Positions 9,409-43,999 of a DNA stretch of 43,999 nt are shown in pieces. The notes under the pieces were generated by a model, which was given only the letters and a program-made list of their open reading frames with translations, searched no databases and was not told where the DNA came from. Numbering within the stretch: the first letter of the stretch is position 1; the number at the start of each line of letters is the position of its first letter. The stretch is from Candidatus Rokubacteria bacterium RIFCSPLOWO2_02_FULL_72_37 (GTDB lineage: Bacteria; Methylomirabilota; Methylomirabilia; Rokubacteriales; CSP1-6), in assembly GCA_001790315.1 (NCBI GenBank), contig MGCE01000066.1, positions 1 through 43,999 of the forward strand, given 5' to 3'. The translations under genes and the position numbers were made by a program.

Positions 9409-10737
9409 ATGGCCAGGACACTCACGCGCGTTGGCGTCGTCGTCTTTCTCCTCGGCGTCGTCGGGCTCCTCGCGGCGGTTCCGCCCGGGGCCGCCCAGGC
9501 GCCCGTCAAGATCACGCTCTGGCATGCGATGGGCGGTGCGCGCTACGACGCGATCACGAAGGAGATCGCGGCGGGGTTCAACAAGGCCTACCCGGCCTAC
9601 ACGCTGGAGCCGCTCTACACGGGCAGCTACGGCGAGACCGTGACGAAGGCGATCGCGGCCATCCGCGCGGGGAACCCGCCGCACATCGTGCAGGTGTTCG
9701 AGGTCGGGACCCAGACGATGCTCGACTCCGGGGCGATCCTCCCCGTGACCGAGGTGGCGAAGCCGGGCGACATCGACTTCGACGACTACCTCGCGCCGAT
9801 CCTCAACTACTACCAGGTGGGCGGGAAGCTGGCGTCGATGCCGTTCAACTCGTCGACGGCCATCGTCTACTACAACAAGGACGTGTTCCAGAAGGCCGGG
9901 CTCGATCCGTCCAGGCCGCCCGCGACGTACAAGGACGTCGAGGAGATGGGCAAGAAGATCGTCGCATCCGGCGCGGCGCGGGCGGCGATCACGTTCGGCT
10001 GGCCCTCGTGGATGTTGGAGCAGGCGCACGCGATGCACAACCAACCCTACGCGGATCACGGCAACGGCCGCCAGGGGCGCGCGACCCGCGTGCTGTTCAA
10101 CGCGCCGTTCGGCGTCGAGGTGCTCGGCCGGTGGAAGCGGTGGGCGGACGACAAGCTCCTGGCGTACGGCGGGCGCGAGTACGCCCCGAACAAGGCGTTC
10201 CTGTCGGGCGAGGTGGCGATGCTCATGCAGTCCACCTCGCAGGTGACGACGCTCGAGAAGGCCGCGAGGTTCCGCATCGGCACCGGGTTCCTGCCGCGCA
10301 TCGAGGGGCAGCCGGCCGGGAGGTCCGTGATCGGCGGCGCCTCGTTCTGGGTGCTCCGGGGCAAGGGCCGGAGCCCGCAGGAGCTGGACGCGATCGCGAA
10401 GTTCTTCAGGTTCGTCGCGCTCCCCGAGGAGACGGCGAAGTGGCACATGGACACGGGCTACTTCCCGGCGACGAAGACCGCCGTGGCGCTGCTGCGGAAG
10501 CAGGAGTGGTTCGTGAAGCACCCGAACCACGAGACGGCCTTCGAGCAGATCCAGCAGGGGCCCGACACGCCGAACACGCGCGGCGTGCTGCTCGGCAACT
10601 TCGTCCAGATCCGCAACATCACGGACACCGCCATCGAGAAGGCGCTGTCGGCTCGGCTCTCCCCGAAGGAGGCCCTCGACGAGGCGGCGCGCGAGGCGAA
10701 CAAGCTCCTGGACGAGTACAACCGGATCAACAAGTAA
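9409..10737 (+). CDS. ugpB: ABC transporter substrate-binding protein, sn-glycerol-3-phosphate/glycerophosphodiester type (set 1)
   Basis: Signal peptide MARTLTRVGVVVFLLGVVGLLAAVPPGAAQA, then ITLWHAMGG and NPPHIVQVFEVGTQTMLDSGAI, as in UgpB-family binding proteins. Confidence 0.85.
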   Translation: MARTLTRVGVVVFLLGVVGLLAAVPPGAAQAPVKITLWHAMGGARYDAITKEIAAGFNKAYPAYTLEPLYTGSYGETVTKAIAAIRAGNPPHIVQVFEVGTQTMLDSGAILPVTEVAKPGDIDFDDYLAPILNYYQVGGKLASMPFNSSTAIVYYNKDVFQKAGLDPSRPPATYKDVEEMGKKIVASGAARAAITFGWPSWMLEQAHAMHNQPYADHGNGRQGRATRVLFNAPFGVEVLGRWKRWADDKLLAYGGREYAPNKAFLSGEVAMLMQSTSQVTTLEKAARFRIGTGFLPRIEGQPAGRSVIGGASFWVLRGKGRSPQELDAIAKFFRFVALPEETAKWHMDTGYFPATKTAVALLRKQEWFVKHPNHETAFEQIQQGPDTPNTRGVLLGNFVQIRNITDTAIEKALSARLSPKEALDEAAREANKLLDEYNRINK

Positions 10738-12557: not shown

Positions 12558-13874
12558 ATGGAGGCGTTCTCGAGGCGTTGGACAGCGCTCGCCGTTGCCG
12601 TCGCGGTGCTCCTCATCGGAACGCCCGCGCAGGCGAAGACCGAGATCCACTTCTGGCACGCGATGGGTGGACAGCTCGGCGCAGCCACAAACGAGCTGGT
12701 GAAGCAGTTCAACCAGAGCCAGTCGGAATACGAGGTCAAGGCTCTCAACAAGGGCACGTACCCCGAGGTCCTGACGGGGGCCATCGCGGCGTACCGGCAG
12801 AAGAACCCGCCCCACATCGTCCAGGTCTTCGACGTCGGCACCCAGACCATGCTCCTCTCGGGCGCGATCTACCCGATCTTCCAGCTCATGAAGGAGCAGG
12901 AGATCGCGGTGAACTGGGGCGACTTCATCAAGCCGGTGACGGGCTACTACTCGAAGGACGGCAACCTCTACTCGATGCCGTTCAACTCGTCGAGCCCGAT
13001 CCTCTACTACAACAAGACGGCCTTCAAGAAGGCGGGCCTCAATCCCGACAAGCCGCCGGCGACGTGGAAGGAAGTCGGCGAGGCCTCGAAGAAGATCATC
13101 GCCGCGGGCGCGGCGAAATGCGGCTTCACCACGTCGTGGCCGTCCTGGACGATGCTCGAGAACACCTTCCCCTGGCACGACCAGCCCTTCGCGACCAACC
13201 AGAACGGCTACACCGGGCTCGACACGAAGCTCCTCATCAACGGCGAGTTTGGCGTGAAGCACATCGGCCAGCTCGCCGCGTGGCAGAAGGAAGGCGTCTA
13301 CTCCTACGGTGGGCGCATGGGGGCGCCGGACACCAAATTCATCAGCGGCGAGTGCGCGATGGACATCCAGTCGTCCGCGGTGATCGGCGGCTTCAAGAAG
13401 TCGCTGAAGTTCGAGTGGGGCACCGGGCAGCTGCCCCACTGGGGTGCGCCCTACAAGAAGCAGAACGCGGTCGTGGGCGGCGCGACGCTGTGGGTGCTGA
13501 AGGGCCAGAAGCCCGCCGACTACAAGGGCGTCGCGCGGTTCATGAAGTTCATCGCCGAGCCCCATCAGCAGATGTGGTGGCACGTCACCACGGGGTACCT
13601 GCCCATCACGCACACGGCGATCAAGAACCTCGAGACCGGCTACCACTTCAAGAAGAACCCCGAGCAGTGGACGGCGCTCAGCCAGCTCTCCGCCAAGCCG
13701 ACGCCGAACAGCCTGGGGCATCGCCTCGGGAACTTCGTGCAGATCCGTGAGGCGATCGAGAGCGAGATGGAGAACATCTTCGCCGGCAAGAAGACGGCGA
13801 AGGAGGGACTCGAGGCCGCGGTCGCGAAGGGCAACGCGATCCTGGGGGAATTCGCCGCGGCCAACAAGCCCTAG
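12558..13874 (+). CDS. ugpB: ABC transporter substrate-binding protein, UgpB-like (set 2, paralog of 9409..10737)
   Basis: Signal peptide MEAFSRRWTALAVAVAVLLIGTPAQA, then IHFWHAMGG and NPPHIVQVFDVGTQTMLLSGAI. Clearly paralogous to set 1. Confidence 0.85.
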   Translation: MEAFSRRWTALAVAVAVLLIGTPAQAKTEIHFWHAMGGQLGAATNELVKQFNQSQSEYEVKALNKGTYPEVLTGAIAAYRQKNPPHIVQVFDVGTQTMLLSGAIYPIFQLMKEQEIAVNWGDFIKPVTGYYSKDGNLYSMPFNSSSPILYYNKTAFKKAGLNPDKPPATWKEVGEASKKIIAAGAAKCGFTTSWPSWTMLENTFPWHDQPFATNQNGYTGLDTKLLINGEFGVKHIGQLAAWQKEGVYSYGGRMGAPDTKFISGECAMDIQSSAVIGGFKKSLKFEWGTGQLPHWGAPYKKQNAVVGGATLWVLKGQKPADYKGVARFMKFIAEPHQQMWWHVTTGYLPITHTAIKNLETGYHFKKNPEQWTALSQLSAKPTPNSLGHRLGNFVQIREAIESEMENIFAGKKTAKEGLEAAVAKGNAILGEFAAANKP

Positions 13875-30549: not shown

Positions 30550-31862
30550 TCCGTTCCCTCGACGCGCGCACCCTCGGCCTGGACGCGGTGGCGGCCGCGC
30601 TCGCGCGGTCGGCGGAGACGGTGGCGCCGGAGATCCACCACGCCGTGGACGAAATCCTCGCCGCGGTCCGAACGCGCGGCGACGCGGCCCTCCTCGAATG
30701 CACGGAGCGCTTCGACGGCTTCCGCGCCCCGTCGGCTGCGGCGCTCGCCATCTCGCCCGCAGAGTTCGAGGCCGCCGAGCGCGGCCTGGCGCCCACGATT
30801 CGCGCGGCACTCGTCTACGCTGCCGAGCGCATCGAGCGTTACCATGCCGCGGCGGTGCCGAAATCCTGGCGTCTGACCGACGAGCACGGCTCGGTCCTGG
30901 GCCAGGAGGTCCGCCCGTTGGACCGGGTCGGCCTCTATGTTCCCGGCGGGCGCGCCGCGTATCCGTCGACCGTCCTGATGACCGCCATCCCCGCGCGTGT
31001 CGCGGGCGTGCGCGACATCGTGCTCGTGACGCCGCCGGGGCGGGACGGCGCCGTCGAGCCGGTGGTGCTCGCGGCCGCGCGCCTCGCGGGCGTGACCGAG
31101 GGCTGGCGGCTGGGTGGCGCCCAGGCCATCGGGGCGCTCGCGTACGGCACGGCGACGATCCGCCGCGTGGACAAGATCGTGGGTCCGGGCAACATCTTCG
31201 TGGCGCTGGCGAAGGCGCGGGTGTTCGGCGAGGTCGGGATCGACATGATCGCCGGCCCGAGCGAGGTCGTCGTCGTGGCGGACGCCGCCGCCGACCCCGC
31301 GTGGGTCGCGGGCGACTTGCTGGCGCAGGCCGAGCACGATCCGATGGCGCGGGCAGTCCTGATCACGGATGCCGGCGGGCTGCTCTCCGCCGTGGCGCGG
31401 GAGATCGAGCGACAGCTCGCCGCGCTGCCGCGCCGGGAGATCGCCGCCCAGGCGCTCGCAGCGAACGGCGCCCTGGTCCAGGTCGCCTCGCTGCACGACG
31501 CCGTCGAGCTGGCGAACCGGCTGGCGCCCGAGCACCTGGAGCTGATGGTTGCGGTCCCGGCCGACCTGCTGCCGCGCGTGCGGCACGCCGGCGCGGTCTT
31601 CCTCGGCGGTCACACGCCCGAAGTCGTCGGTGATTACGTGGCCGGTCCCAACCACGTGCTCCCGACGGGCGGGACCGCCCGGTTCGGCTCGCCGCTCGGC
31701 ACGGAGGATTTCGTGAAACGCTCGAGCATCATCGAGTACTCGCCTGGCGGGCTCGCCGCCGCGGCGGCGCACCTGACTGCGCTCTCGCGCCTCGAGGGGC
31801 TCGAGGGCCACGGGCGCGCGGCGGAGCTCAGGCTCGCGAGCGAGGGGAGGGCCAAGGCATGA
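30546..31862 (+). CDS. hisD: Histidinol dehydrogenase
   Basis: 438 aa, GTGA overlap with hisG. Motifs: LYVPGGRAAYPSTVLM, IAGPSEVVVVAD, AQAEHDP. Confidence 0.92.
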   Translation: MIRSLDARTLGLDAVAAALARSAETVAPEIHHAVDEILAAVRTRGDAALLECTERFDGFRAPSAAALAISPAEFEAAERGLAPTIRAALVYAAERIERYHAAAVPKSWRLTDEHGSVLGQEVRPLDRVGLYVPGGRAAYPSTVLMTAIPARVAGVRDIVLVTPPGRDGAVEPVVLAAARLAGVTEGWRLGGAQAIGALAYGTATIRRVDKIVGPGNIFVALAKARVFGEVGIDMIAGPSEVVVVADAAADPAWVAGDLLAQAEHDPMARAVLITDAGGLLSAVAREIERQLAALPRREIAAQALAANGALVQVASLHDAVELANRLAPEHLELMVAVPADLLPRVRHAGAVFLGGHTPEVVGDYVAGPNHVLPTGGTARFGSPLGTEDFVKRSSIIEYSPGGLAAAAAHLTALSRLEGLEGHGRAAELRLASEGRAKA

Positions 31863-32467
31863 GCGTGGACGCGGCAGGCCGGCACGCCCGGATCGAGCGC
31901 AAGACCAAAGAGACGGAGATCACGATCCACGTGAACCTCGACGGCACGGGTGCGTCGAAGGTGCGCACGCCGATCCCGTTCTTCAGCCACATGCTCGAGG
32001 CGTGGTCGAAACACGGTCTCCTGGACCTCGCCGTCGAGGCCCAGGGCGACGTCGAGGTGGACCAGCACCATACGGTCGAGGACGTGGGGATCGTGCTCGG
32101 CCAGGCGCTCCGCCAGGCGCTCGGCGACAAGCGGGGGATCGTGCGGTACGGCACCGCCTGGATCCCGATGGACGAGACGCTCGTGTCGGCGGCCGTGGAC
32201 CTCTCGGGTCGACCGTACCTCGTGTTCGCCGTGCCCGTGGCGCGCCAGCGGGTTTCCAACTTCGACCTGGACCTCCTCCAGGAGTTCTTCCGCGCGCTGG
32301 CGTTCAACGCGGAGATCACCCTCCACGTGACCCTGCACTACGGCCACAATCTGCACCACATCACCGAGGCGGTGTTCAAAGCTGTGGGCCGAGCGCTCGC
32401 CGCGGCGACGCGGATCGATCCGCGTGTCGCGGACCTCGTGCCGTCGACGAAGGGCCGCCTCGGATGA
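31859..32467 (+). CDS. hisB: Imidazoleglycerol-phosphate dehydratase
   Basis: 202 aa, ATGA overlap with hisD. Motifs: RKTKETEI, DQHHTVEDVGIVLG, and GHNLHHITEAVFKA. Confidence 0.92.
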   Translation: MSVDAAGRHARIERKTKETEITIHVNLDGTGASKVRTPIPFFSHMLEAWSKHGLLDLAVEAQGDVEVDQHHTVEDVGIVLGQALRQALGDKRGIVRYGTAWIPMDETLVSAAVDLSGRPYLVFAVPVARQRVSNFDLDLLQEFFRALAFNAEITLHVTLHYGHNLHHITEAVFKAVGRALAAATRIDPRVADLVPSTKGRLG

Positions 32468-32504: not shown

Positions 32505-33263
32505 ATGATTGCCATCGTCGACTACGGGCGCGGGAACCTCGGCTCGGTCGAGAAGGCCTTCGGGCGGGTGGGCATCCCCGCGGTCGTCACTCAGGACCCG
32601 CGCGCCGTCGACGAGGCCGACGCGGTGGTGTTGCCGGGAGACGGCGCATTCCACGACGCGATGATGAACCTCGAACGGCTGGGTTTGCTGGCGCCTCTCC
32701 GGCGGGCCCTCGACGGCACCCGACCGTTCCTCGGGATCTGCCTCGGCTACCAGCTCCTCTTCTCGTCGAGCGAGGAGTTCGGCGAAGGACGCGGGCTCGA
32801 CGTGATCCCGGGCGTCGTCCGCCGTTTCCCGCCCGGTCGGAAGATCCCCCACATGGGCTGGAACTGCGTCGAGCACGGCGGCGACCTGCGACTCCTCGAG
32901 GGGGTGCCCTCGGGAGCATATTTCTACTTCGTCCACTCGTATTATCCCGTTGTAGCGGGGACCGTGAGATCGGCTTCAGTTGTAGCGAGGGCCGCGAGGC
33001 CGGCTTCAACCGAGGGTGGCCTGCCACAGGCACGTGTGGCTGCGGGCGCGCGGCGAGCCTCGGAGGAGAGCCCGTCCCGGATGCGTGTGGCTCCGGACGC
33101 GCCGACTCTGCGCGTCGCGTGGTGCGACTACGGAGTCCGCTTCGCGGCGGCGGTGGAGCACGGGCGGATCCACGCCACGCAGTTCCACCCCGAGAAGAGC
33201 CAGCGCTGGGGCCTTCGGATGCTCGAGAACTTCGCGGCGATCGTGAAGGGCGGGGGCCGATGA
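32505..33263 (+). CDS. hisH: Imidazole glycerol phosphate synthase glutaminase subunit, carrying an in-frame insertion of about 46 codons
   Basis: 252 aa, versus about 200 aa typically. Motifs: [24 protein letters not shown] (catalytic Cys), and QFHPEKS (His/Glu). FVHSYYPV and VAWCDYG are normally separated by about a dozen residues. Here they are separated by [54 protein letters not shown]. Confidence 0.85.
32949..33091 (+). repeat. Intragenic copy of the repeat family also found in the tRNA spacers; its 30-nt head is tandemly duplicated
   Basis: From 32980, TTGTAGCGAGGGCCGCGAGGCCGGCTTCAACCGAGGGTGGCCTG... aligns by hand with TTGTAACGAGGGCCGCGTGGCCGGCTCGAATCGTGGGTGGCCTG... at 43576. That is 24/26 identities followed by 14/18, and it is looser further 3'. 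A second head unit lies at 32949..32978. The boundaries are approximate. Confidence 0.65.
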
Positions 33264-33982
33264 TCGTCATTCCCGCCGTCGACCTGCGCGCCGGGCGTTG
33301 TGTGCGCCTGCGGGAGGGCCGGGCCGACCAGGAGACGGTGTTCTCGGAGGATCCCGTCGCGGCGGCGCTGCGCTGGAAGGCGTGCGGCGCCGAGCGACTC
33401 CACGTGGTGGACCTCGACGGTGCCTTCGCGGGCGAACCCAGGCAGACGGCGCTGATCGCCGCGATCGTCGCGGCCGTGACGCCCCTGCCTGTCGAGGTCG
33501 GGGGCGGGCTCAGGAGCCTCGGCGCACTCGAAGCCGCGCTCGAGGCCGGCGCGCGGTGGGCCGTCGTCGGCACGCGTGCCACGCTCGACCCGGACTTTCT
33601 CGGCGAGGCCTGCCGGAAGTTCCCGGGACGCATCGTCGCTGCGGTCGACGGACGCGGAGAGCGCGTCGCGGTCCGAGGCTGGACCGAGCTGGCGGACGCG
33701 AGCGTGGTGGAGGTGGGCGGCCGCGCCCGCGATGCCGGTGCCACCGCGCTCCTCTACACGGACGTGACCCGCGACGGCACGGAGCTCGGACCGAACATCG
33801 AGGCGACCGCCGCGCTGGCGCGCGCCGTCGAGCTGCCCATCCTCGCCTCGGGCGGCGTCGCGCGCGTGGACGACCTGGTGCGCCTTGCGGCGATCCCGCG
33901 CGTGGTCGGCACGATCGTCGGGCGGGCGCTCTACACCGGCGCGATCGACCTGACCGCCGCGCTGGCGGCGCTGGAAGGCTGA
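33260..33982 (+). CDS. hisA: ProFAR isomerase (1-(5-phosphoribosyl)-5-[(5-phosphoribosylamino)methylideneamino]imidazole-4-carboxamide isomerase)
   Basis: 240 aa, ATGA overlap with hisH. Motifs: [34 protein letters not shown], and ASGGV. Confidence 0.9.
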
Positions 33983-43377: not shown

Positions 43378-43452
43378 GCTGGCGTAGCTCAGTGGCAGAG
43401 CAACTGCCTTGTAAGCAGTGGGTCGGGGGTTCAAATCCTCCCGCCAGCGCCA
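43378..43452 (+). tRNA. thrU: tRNA-Thr (anticodon TGT)
   Basis: Hand-folded cloverleaf. Acceptor GCTGGCG/CGCCAGC, D arm GCTC-AGTGGCA-GAGC, anticodon arm ACTGC-CTTGTAA-GCAGT, T loop TTCAAAT. The CCA end is encoded. Confidence 0.9.
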
Positions 43453-43489
43453 GCTTTTCGAGGAGTTTCGATCGCATGCCGGCGGAATC

Positions 43490-43575
43490 GGGGAGGTACC
43501 CAAGTGGCCAAAGGGGGCAGACTGTAAATCTGCTGGCGTACGCCTTCGGGGGTTCAAATCCTCCCCTCCCCACCA
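43490..43575 (+). tRNA. tyrU: tRNA-Tyr (anticodon GTA), long variable arm
   Basis: Acceptor GGGGAGG/CCTCCCC, anticodon loop CTGTAAA, long variable arm (TGGCGTACGCCTTC), T loop TTCAAAT. The CCA end is encoded. Confidence 0.9.
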
Positions 43576-43651
43576 TTGTAACGAGGGCCGCGTGGCCGGC
43601 TCGAATCGTGGGTGGCCTGAGCCCGGCACGAGTCGTGAGGGTGCGCGTGGC
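43576..43651 (+). repeat. Repeat family copy A (76 nt), starting immediately after the tRNA-Tyr CCA
   Basis: TTGTAACGAGGGCCGCGTGGCCGGCTCGAATCGTGGGTGGCCTGAGCCCGGCACGAGTCGTGAGGGTGCGCGTGGC. It differs from copy B at 4 of 76 positions by hand alignment. Confidence 0.8.
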
Positions 43652-43662
43652 TCTGGCTACGG

Positions 43663-43737
43663 GCGGGAATAGCTCAGCGGTAGAGCGCCAGCCTTCCAAG
43701 CTGGGGGTCGCGGGTTCGAATCCCGTTTCCCGCTCCA
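43663..43737 (+). tRNA. glyT: tRNA-Gly (anticodon TCC)
   Basis: Acceptor GCGGGAA/TTCCCGC, D arm GCTC-AGCGGTA-GAGC, anticodon arm CCAGC-CTTCCAA-GCTGG, T loop TTCGAAT. The CCA end is encoded. Confidence 0.9.
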
Positions 43738-43813
43738 TTGTAACGAGCGCCGCGTGGCCGGCTCGAATCGTGGGTGGCCTGAGCCCGGCACGAGTTGGGA
43801 GGGCGCGCGTGGC
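43738..43813 (+). repeat. Repeat family copy B (76 nt), starting immediately after the tRNA-Gly CCA
   Basis: TTGTAACGAGCGCCGCGTGGCCGGCTCGAATCGTGGGTGGCCTGAGCCCGGCACGAGTTGGGAGGGCGCGCGTGGC. Confidence 0.8.
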
Positions 43814-43826
43814 CGAGTGTGCATAT

Positions 43827-43902
43827 GCCCATGTAGCTCAGACGGCAGAGCGCGTCCTTGGTAAGGACGAGGTCTCCGGTTCAATCCCGGACATGGGCTC
43901 CA
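43827..43902 (+). tRNA. thrT: tRNA-Thr (anticodon GGT)
   Basis: Acceptor GCCCATG/CATGGGC, D arm GCTC-AGACGGCA-GAGC, anticodon arm CGTCC-TTGGTAA-GGACG, T loop TTCAATC. The CCA end is encoded. Confidence 0.9.
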
Positions 43903-43952
43903 GTTCAGAAGGTCGGCGTCGGGTCGTGACCGCCAACGGGAGGACGTGAGGC

Positions 43953-43999
43953 ATGGCGAAGGCGAAGTACGAGCGGACGAAGCCGCACGTGAACGTCGG
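43953..43999 (+). CDS. tuf: Elongation factor Tu (first 15 codons; continues beyond the window)
   Basis: MAKAKYERTKPHVNV is the conserved EF-Tu N-terminus. GGGAGGA provides a Shine-Dalgarno at 43938..43944. The Thr-Tyr-Gly-Thr-tuf order matches the classical tufB operon arrangement. Confidence 0.9.
   Translation, partial: MAKAKYERTKPHVNV

Follow-up and report, generated by a model that had tools for sequence, protein, structure and literature searches.

The stretch of DNA analyzed here, hereafter the window, comprises 43,999 nucleotides (nt) of Candidatus Rokubacteria bacterium RIFCSPLOWO2_02_FULL_72_37 (assembly GCA_001790315.1, contig MGCE01000066.1, positions 1 to 43,999), and its hisH gene carries, in frame and at the site of a β-hairpin turn, a segment homologous to a short repeat dispersed among Rokubacteria genomes. 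The gene is placed as follows:

32505..33263, plus strand: hisH, glutaminase subunit of imidazole glycerol phosphate synthase, 252 amino acids (aa), supported by TIGR01855, by homologues and by the core fold of the AlphaFold2 (AF2) model

This open reading frame (ORF) is HisH by equivalog score, catalytic triad, operon and fold. It scored 204.9 bits against the NCBIfam equivalog TIGR01855 (cut-off 105.4), the match being split into two stretches, and the homologues found for the protein were all HisH. The start codon ATG at 32505 agreed with all of them, and the ORF ends at 33263. Cys79 (within GICLGYQ) and His228/Glu230 (within QFHPEKS), the two motifs from which a preliminary description of this DNA had judged the enzyme to be intact at both ends, were invariant in all alignments made. 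The gene lies in an operon of the order hisB-hisH-hisA-hisF, and the neighbors hisB (31859-32467) and hisA (33260-33982) were confirmed.

The inserted segment and its modules were delimited as follows:

32949..33107, plus strand: in-frame repeat-derived insert of 53 codons (V149-T201) in place of the β-hairpin turn, supported by alignments, by the predicted local distance difference test (pLDDT) and by the absence of a codon-position signature

32949..33008, plus strand: element head module, tandem 2 x 30 nt (32949-32978 and 32979-33008), 83% identical, supported by repeat search and Tandem Repeats Finder (TRF) with period 30

32980..33052, plus strand: repeat-unit core TTGTAGCGAGGGCCGCGAGGCCGGCT...GGGTGGCCTG..., with homology to the copies in the tRNA spacers and to over 130 copies from other Rokubacteria genomes

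33012..33102, plus strand: body/tail module duplicated at 51-nt spacing (33012-33051 and 33063-33102), 70% identical, supported by repeat search

Residues 2-148 and 203-245 of the window HisH aligned to residues 5-154 and 160-202 of the V. cholerae HisH 4gud_A, and alignments with 1ka9_H and 1gpw_B gave the same picture; the gap therefore indicates that about 54 window residues stand in place of a 5-residue turn. The preliminary description had placed the insert at 32949-33091, with about 46 codons. Its start was retained, while the alignment with solved HisH moved the end to 33107 and the size to 53 codons, a net gain of about 48-49 residues over the native turn of 4-5. The segment is built of duplications, since the 30-nt head occurs twice and a 40-nt body segment recurs 51 nt downstream, and both sub-repeat periods (30 and 51 nt) are multiples of three.

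Repeats are classic sites of mis-assembly, which is the point in favor of a chimera or mis-join inside hisH, an outcome that the preliminary description had named as fatal to its reading. However, this explanation was excluded, because at least five contigs from four independent samples encode an identical 252-aa protein and because orthologous inserts lie on contigs of 1.3-2.6 Mb from many independent assemblies; moreover, a protein 99% identical to the window HisH (P0001) is recorded in JGI and ENA. The probability left to an assembly artifact is thus negligible. The window HisH and P0001 differ by two amino acids only, both within the insert (E to A in STEGG and A to P in VAAGAR), a distribution that fits relaxed constraint on this segment.

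Two further copies of the element lie close to the end of the window:

43576..43662, plus strand: repeat copy filling the tRNA-Tyr to tRNA-Gly spacer, from the base after CCA, supported by consensus, blastn and nhmmer

43738..43826, plus strand: repeat copy filling the tRNA-Gly to tRNA-Thr spacer, from the base after CCA, supported by consensus, blastn and nhmmer

These spacer copies are 94.7% identical over 76 nt, and each begins at the first base past the encoded CCA of the preceding tRNA-Tyr or tRNA-Gly. The homology of the insert to this 76-nt element, proposed in the preliminary description, was confirmed by different approaches. The insert core is 79-81% identical to both spacer copies over 58 ungapped nt, and blastn aligned it with the spacers at 79.7% identity over 74 nt (E = 1.5e-9). 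Similarly, an nhmmer profile made from the two spacers only recovered 32980-33051 with E = 1.1e-8, the next-best match in the window having E = 0.36. The similarity also exceeds what chance would produce in DNA of about 70% GC, as a 26-nt consensus, with up to 3 mismatches allowed, matched exactly three sites in the window (hisH and the two spacers) against 0.00 expected from 100 shuffles.

The spacer copies belong to a tRNA-Thr/Tyr/Gly/Thr cluster at 43378-43999, which is followed by the start of tuf (MAKAKYERTKPHV), an order that corresponds to the thrU-tyrU-glyT-thrT-tufB cluster of E. coli. In the orthologous cluster of another genome (L063), the Tyr-Gly spacer also carries the element, and the Gly-Thr spacer is only 26 nt long and holds a remnant resembling the 3′ end of the unit; this apparently empty site is therefore not one from which insertion boundaries can be defined by filled-versus-empty comparison. 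The element was also found after tRNA-Met in three other genomes (L042, L084, and L101), and in L084 and L101 the 3′ end of this tRNA reads CTA or CTG instead of CCA.

Within hisH, the segment lacks the signature of coding DNA. An A or T ends 18 of the 53 insert codons and 21 of the 199 codons of hisH outside the insert (Fisher p = 1.4e-4). The preliminary description had based the same contrast on 15 of 46 inserted codons against 3 of the first 46 hisH codons; the latter count stood, and the former became 18 of 53 under the wider limits. The flanks showed pairwise differences of 0.13/0.08/0.39 at the three codon positions, a profile typical of purifying selection, and the insert 0.30/0.31/0.33; GC contents at these positions were.73/.45/.88 and.76/.70/.67, respectively. 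The insert therefore evolves as if it were non-coding, with only its frame and openness kept. These results support the earlier claims that the segment began as non-coding DNA unshaped by protein-level selection and that the reading frame is preserved with no stop codon, the latter being true in all orthologues.

The insert is not peculiar to the window genome. All 120 best HisH homologues were 231-274 aa long, and the insert was present at the identical site, orientation and frame in the 18 of them that were aligned, as well as in hisH of ten species for which the gene was read from the DNA itself. Relative to the window protein, the flanks in these ten species were 78-85% identical, and the inserts, of 28-53 aa, were 38-57% identical, with a varying number of 7-8-residue sub-repeats among orthologues. 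The next-best HisH clusters (identity of up to 57%, 200-215 aa) have the short native turn and no insert, and only the Rokubacteria cluster matched through the insert in a library of 1.84 billion representative proteins. Judging from these comparisons, the insertion is old and common to all close Rokubacteria-type HisH proteins, and the simplest reading is a single insertion in the clade ancestor, followed by slippage.

In the context of the protein fold, AF2 modeling with a 135-sequence alignment gave a mean pLDDT of 87.6 and a predicted template modeling (TM) score of 0.82, with core values above 95; this alignment replaced one of 19 close homologues, whose model (mean pLDDT 44.9) was unusable. 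Residues of about 151-202 were predicted as coil with pLDDT of 42-63, between strands 146-150 and 203-208, and the modeled core matched the solved HisH 4gud_A and 1ka9_H with a TM score of 0.91, normalized by target length. When mapped on T. maritima HisH, window V149 corresponds to V146 and G210 to G160, so that the insert replaces the hairpin tip 147-151. The 1GPW interface residues assigned by PISA on this hairpin are Y138, V140, T142, and E157-D159 (PMC9032424 S1 Table), and they lie 4-5 strand residues from the insertion on each side. The loop would consequently emerge at the hairpin end, far from both HisF and the catalytic triad. In fact, P0141 (299 aa) and P0161 (273 aa), from two unrelated HisH lineages sharing only about 45% identity with the window protein, each have at this loop a long insert of their own that does not resemble the Rokubacteria insert, which argues that this hairpin loop is intrinsically permissive. 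The P0141 insert is itself internally repetitive (PPLREGNxAG, RLQEGx) and, given these repeats, may represent another repeat-derived insertion. Large inserts were also observed at two further loops in P0147, P0163, and P0192 (one following SEEF, the other following the RF just before PHMGWN), and HisH thus seems, from such alignments, to accept insertions at several surface sites.

The element of hisH and the tRNA spacers belongs to a large repeat family. A degenerate 44-nt core pattern, scanned against one genome per species from 185,579 species, matched at least 115 stretches in about 45 genomes, some of them intragenic and in frame, with up to 14 strict-pattern copies per genome, and an nhmmer search yielded 183 matches in 140 clusters. 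Among the matches listed, all came from metagenome-assembled genomes (MAGs) labeled Rokubacteria, Rokuibacteriota, Methylomirabilota or Methylomirabilia, except for one MAG labeled Binatia, with five loci, and one labeled only "uncultured bacterium". The Binatia MAG (SMAG_U11632, Candidatus Binatia) carries the repeat at L047, L050, L080, L088, and L112, including in-frame copies in UvrA and PheT, and its PheT insert is orthologous to that of Rokubacteria MAGs, which suggests that this genome may be misclassified or mis-binned.

The unit has about 66 nt, TTGTAGCGGGGGCCGCGAGGCCGGCT..GGGTGGCCTG..GGCTCCG, with the consensus TTGTAGCGGGGGCCGCGAGGCCGGCTnnnnCCGnGGGTGGCCTGnnnnAGGnGCGnnnnGGCTCCG, and tail modules such as ACACGCCCGGTC frequently come after it. 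A unit may stand alone or belong to a head-to-tail array of 2-4, whose period is 66 nt (51 nt in L094), and GTAG occupies unit positions 3-6 in 113 of 132 copies. Copies from different loci of the same genome were more alike than copies from different genomes (82.7% vs 76.5%, a difference reached in 0 of 500 permutations), a pattern indicating that the repeat has spread in a lineage-specific manner or been homogenized by gene conversion. With respect to structure, no inverted repeats were found in the insert, and only a 4-bp local stem plus a weak longer stem follow GTAG. RNAalifold gave a weak 9-pair stem for 50 diverse units, with no compensatory changes, and covariation and mutual-information analysis of the copies revealed no Watson-Crick covariation and no supported structure; both tests were weakened by the fact that the copies had been picked with a fixed pattern. 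An element-peptide profile (frame b, dimerized for the 40-aa minimum) run against a protein database returned a single hit from 615 candidates and was uninformative.

Other kinds of element were discarded on the basis of the nucleotide sequence alone. The units are placed head to tail with no spacers, which does not agree with a CRISPR array; integron attC sites were rejected because the core sites mismatch and the neighbors are housekeeping genes; and a promoter was rejected because the TACAAT at the element end is too near the ATG.

The distribution of the family bears directly on whether the segment could be a native, lineage-specific HisH loop, its similarity to other DNA having arisen by the copying of hisH DNA elsewhere or by chance in GC-rich sequence. 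Clade-wide presence at one site would be expected of such a loop. However, more than 130 copies occur at unrelated loci in about 45 genomes, mostly intergenic and mostly in the opposite orientation, the shuffles gave 0 chance matches, the insert has no coding signature, and the native turn is short in the nearest outgroup HisH proteins, all of which make a native loop hardly credible. The preliminary description had held that a conserved loop in orthologues, with normal codon usage and no further genomic copies of the motif, would speak against an inserted repeat. Orthologues do share the insert site, but the coding-type codon signature was absent and many further DNA copies exist.

Insertion into reading frames was observed well beyond HisH. 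ORFs spanning a copy, with coding signal on both sides, encode UvrA (L047), PheT (L115, L112, and L105), TopA (L038), a GNAT acetyltransferase (L110), a PlsC-type acyltransferase (L109), and an ABC exporter (L079), and in these six families Pfam domains lie on both sides of the insert or have envelopes stretched by it. The PheT of L105 contains three units (66 aa) and the other PheT copies one, TopA contains 2.5 units, and the copy in the ABC exporter lies between the membrane and ATPase domains. In all six families, the common orientation is read in one and the same frame, yielding the peptide S/EPARxSLRPPSxxAGLTAPAT, and HisH reads the other strand of the element, giving VVAGAVSTALTEGGLRQARVAPDARS. 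Judged from these ORFs, in-frame insertion is a trait of the repeat family, involving at least six protein families beyond HisH. Separately, a single 725-aa call in L003 (18706-20726) joins CysS domains to a SpoU methylase, and the corresponding region of L001 (18777-20744) is split into short genes; this region may reflect fusion or frameshift artifacts or another repeat-mediated junction.

A further question is whether the segment is absent from the mature protein, being taken out or skipped at the level of RNA or of translation, with the open frame incidental. Nothing direct favors removal, apart from the origin of the segment in a repeat whose spacer copies can form a hairpin. Against it, all orthologues keep the frame without a stop codon despite many independent indels (231-274 aa), while 39 of the 132 genomic units have a stop codon in the hisH-type frame. 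Moreover, Rfam searches at gathering and E-value thresholds returned only tRNAs and chance matches, and no intron, intein or other RNA family was matched to the insert. To our knowledge, self-splicing introns and inteins are all far larger than a segment of about 160 nt or 53 aa. Removal is accordingly very improbable, and the insert is most likely translated as a disordered loop rich in Ala, Arg, Gly, Ser, and Pro.

Most copies of the family are intergenic and share a single orientation. Coding frames around the copies were called by a log-odds score of codon usage that the loci themselves served to train. Of 117 clusters that could be scored, 65 were found between two genes that both lie on the strand opposite to the TTGTAGCG reading, and, including half-determined cases, the two orientations numbered 90 and 11 (binomial p = 1.4e-16). 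Given this bias, the usual form along transcription is 5′-CGGAGCC...CAGGCCACCC...GGCCCCCGCTACAA-3′. Its 3′ end abuts the next gene base-exactly, with 19 ACAATGA junctions in which the last A of the element completes the ATG, and the N-termini thus begun are clearly genuine, such as MKPPRFDYHAP and MNILMIGDVF; at other junctions, an ATG or an AGGAG Shine-Dalgarno site directly follows the element. In 7 of the 19 ACAATGA cases, the upstream gene runs through the whole element to that TGA, and in 4 more an in-frame mini-ORF begins at or overlaps the upstream stop codon (ATGA or GTGA). In L094 (6682-6898), four truncated units with a 51-nt (17-codon) period add about 70 residues (repeats of ELRSRDAPTAGPPRSEP) to the upstream ORF, and the extended ORF stops at a TGA that overlaps the ATG of the next gene. 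Of the 11 clusters in the rare orientation, 5 lie in hisH and 3 follow tRNA-Met. The three clusters of the window are in the rarer orientation too, but, being undetermined or at the window edge, they stand outside the 11.

Such junctions raise the possibility, thought rather unlikely, that the family is a translation-compatible intercistronic module whose usual orientation carries ribosomes leaving one gene along an open frame of the element to a TGA overlapping the next ATG (ACAATGA). Translational coupling would then replace the Shine-Dalgarno site, the inserts in HisH, PheT, TopA, UvrA, and other proteins would be by-products of an element selected to be readable, and the opposite orientation, seen at tRNAs and in hisH, could act as an RNA processing or structural signal.

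An alternative of low probability holds that the hisH insert was co-opted, the segment or its RNA being functional as a regulatory or tethering loop of HisH or as a cis-acting site of the his mRNA, and hence long retained. The insert is kept in every close orthologue across a flank divergence of 15-22%, the motif TEGGL is fairly conserved, and the insert diverges slightly slower than the synonymous sites of the flanks. Its orientation is atypical and common only to copies flanking tRNAs, and in that orientation each spacer copy can adopt a long hairpin (-45.2 and -43.4 kcal/mol, z = -2.4 and -1.7). On the other hand, folding of the hisH copy did not surpass that of shuffled sequence (z = -0.19) and no covariation was seen; substitution rates are equal at the three codon positions, with no GC3 signature, large indels spread the insert length over 28-53 aa, and the region is predicted to be disordered.

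Taken together, the HisH insert is very probably an old, tolerated, and translated copy of the dispersed Rokubacteria repeat, placed at a permissive loop. The element would have entered hisH in the clade ancestor, at the insertion-tolerant tip of the β-hairpin, landing by chance in an open frame, after which only the frame and its openness would have been maintained. Slippage among the internal sub-repeats of 30, 51, and about 21 nt would then have generated the varying insert length. Since the loop would leave catalysis and HisF binding undisturbed, we infer that it is a tolerated passenger and not an adaptation.

Several observations weigh against this account of a tolerated repeat copy. The insert diverges slightly slower than the third or synonymous sites of the flanks (0.31 vs 0.39) and the short motif TEGGL persists in many HisH orthologues, so weak constraint or gene conversion is possible. 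In protein-coding operons, the family seldom has the orientation of the hisH copy (11 of 101 copies whose orientation was assigned). The argument from the HisF interface rests on sequence mapping and a monomer model instead of a model of the complex. As for transposition, the unit ends TTGTAGCG and GGCTCCG are not complementary and terminal inverted repeats were not found; no regular target-site duplication was seen, 7-8-nt flank matches numbering 5 against 2.8 expected and longer ones being array junctions; and no transposase was found, a low-power phmmer search for RAYT (REP-associated tyrosine transposase, REP being defined below) and for TnpA of the IS200/IS605 type (IS608) in 5145 ORFs from 863 kb of flanking DNA being negative. 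Because these three features were not found, mobility is deduced only from dispersal. In the MAG GWA2_73_35, three copies (L029, L040, and L052) are flanked by direct repeats of 7, 15, and 7 nt (CGGTCAT, CGCGGCGTCGGTCAT, and CGCTCAT), each including the start codon of the neighboring gene; apart from these, nothing in the data set hints at target duplication.

Compared with known systems, the preliminary description had likened the insertion to that of Rickettsia palindromic elements (RPEs). RPEs are short dispersed repeats found between genes and in frame within unrelated housekeeping genes, where the frame is open, the peptide is conserved because the DNA is, and the sites are tolerated by the fold (PMC10969869). 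The Rokubacteria repeat behaves in the same way, being dispersed, intergenic, and in frame in unrelated housekeeping genes at fold-tolerant sites, and the likeness stands in so far as at least six other families carry it in frame; it does not extend to a palindrome, terminal inverted repeats, or target-site duplication, none of which was shown here. The repeat resembles RPEs in behavior, and no palindrome or hairpin of it was supported by covariation. It also differs in phylum, in its apparently large GC-rich genomes (the window has 70.8% GC, and contigs reach 3.3 Mb), in unit length (about 66 nt vs about 150 bp), and in its strong orientation bias, start-codon abutment, and head-to-tail arrays. 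The accompanying claim that in-frame insertion is rarely reported outside Rickettsia needs correction, since in-frame fusion of small repeats is documented in several bacteria, for the enterobacterial repetitive intergenic consensus (ERIC), for BOX and the repeat unit of pneumococcus (RUP), and for cyanobacterial elements (PMC3184786, PMC10969869), and the phenomenon is therefore not new.

The interspersed repetitive units of mycobacteria (MIRUs) are 40-100-bp units, often in tandem, between the cistrons of operons, with open frames that overlap the ends of neighboring cistrons (PMC3184786). The Rokubacteria repeat likewise forms intercistronic direct repeats (periods 66 and 51 nt) in one orientation to transcription, with predicted open frames that overlap flanking stop and start codons. 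Supply et al. are said to have described in 1997 a uniform orientation of MIRUs relative to transcription. The two differ in sequence and phylum, and the Rokubacteria repeat also occurs inside folded enzyme domains and directly after tRNA 3′ ends. With repetitive extragenic palindromic (REP) sequences and bacterial interspersed mosaic elements (BIMEs), which RAYT (Y1) transposases mobilize, it shares small size, GC richness, extragenic location, and a GTAG near the 5′ end. A GTAG head is a hallmark of REPs. In contrast to REPs and REPINs, however, it lacks a clear palindrome after GTAG and inverted pairs, forms head-to-tail clusters of 1-4 units, and frequently lies within open frames that are predicted to be translated. 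The terminal inverted repeats and fixed-length target-site duplications of MITEs, the miniature transposable elements with inverted repeats, were likewise not observed. BOX and ERIC, which are sometimes fused in frame to the ends or interior of genes (PMC3184786), have a comparable mosaic of head, core, and tail modules of varying copy number, but their sequences are unrelated, and their terminal inverted repeats or stable hairpins were not seen in the Rokubacteria repeat. By the defining features of these families, the repeat does not appear to be an RPE, MITE or REP; it is RPE-like inside genes and MIRU-like between genes. No description of repeats in Rokubacteria was found in the literature, and neither the family nor its fixation across the phylum in HisH, PheT, and other proteins appears to have been described.

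Elsewhere in the window, a 203-nt direct repeat with 71% identity (9776-9978 and 12913-13115, about 3.1 kb apart) probably reflects paralogous transporter genes unrelated to the hisH insert.

These findings extend the presence of repeat DNA inside essential genes, for which Rickettsia is the best-known case, to an uncultured soil phylum with apparently large, GC-rich, and non-reduced genomes, and they provide a phylum-wide natural experiment on protein loops that tolerate about 20-70 foreign residues, as in HisH, PheT, TopA, and UvrA. The repeat family will also mislead gene calling, through start-codon choice, C-terminal extensions, and apparent fusions, as well as the assembly of Rokubacteria MAGs. 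Moreover, clues to a new insertion specificity or to a role in translational coupling come from the 9:1 orientation bias and from the way the repeat adjoins start codons and tRNA ends to the exact base.

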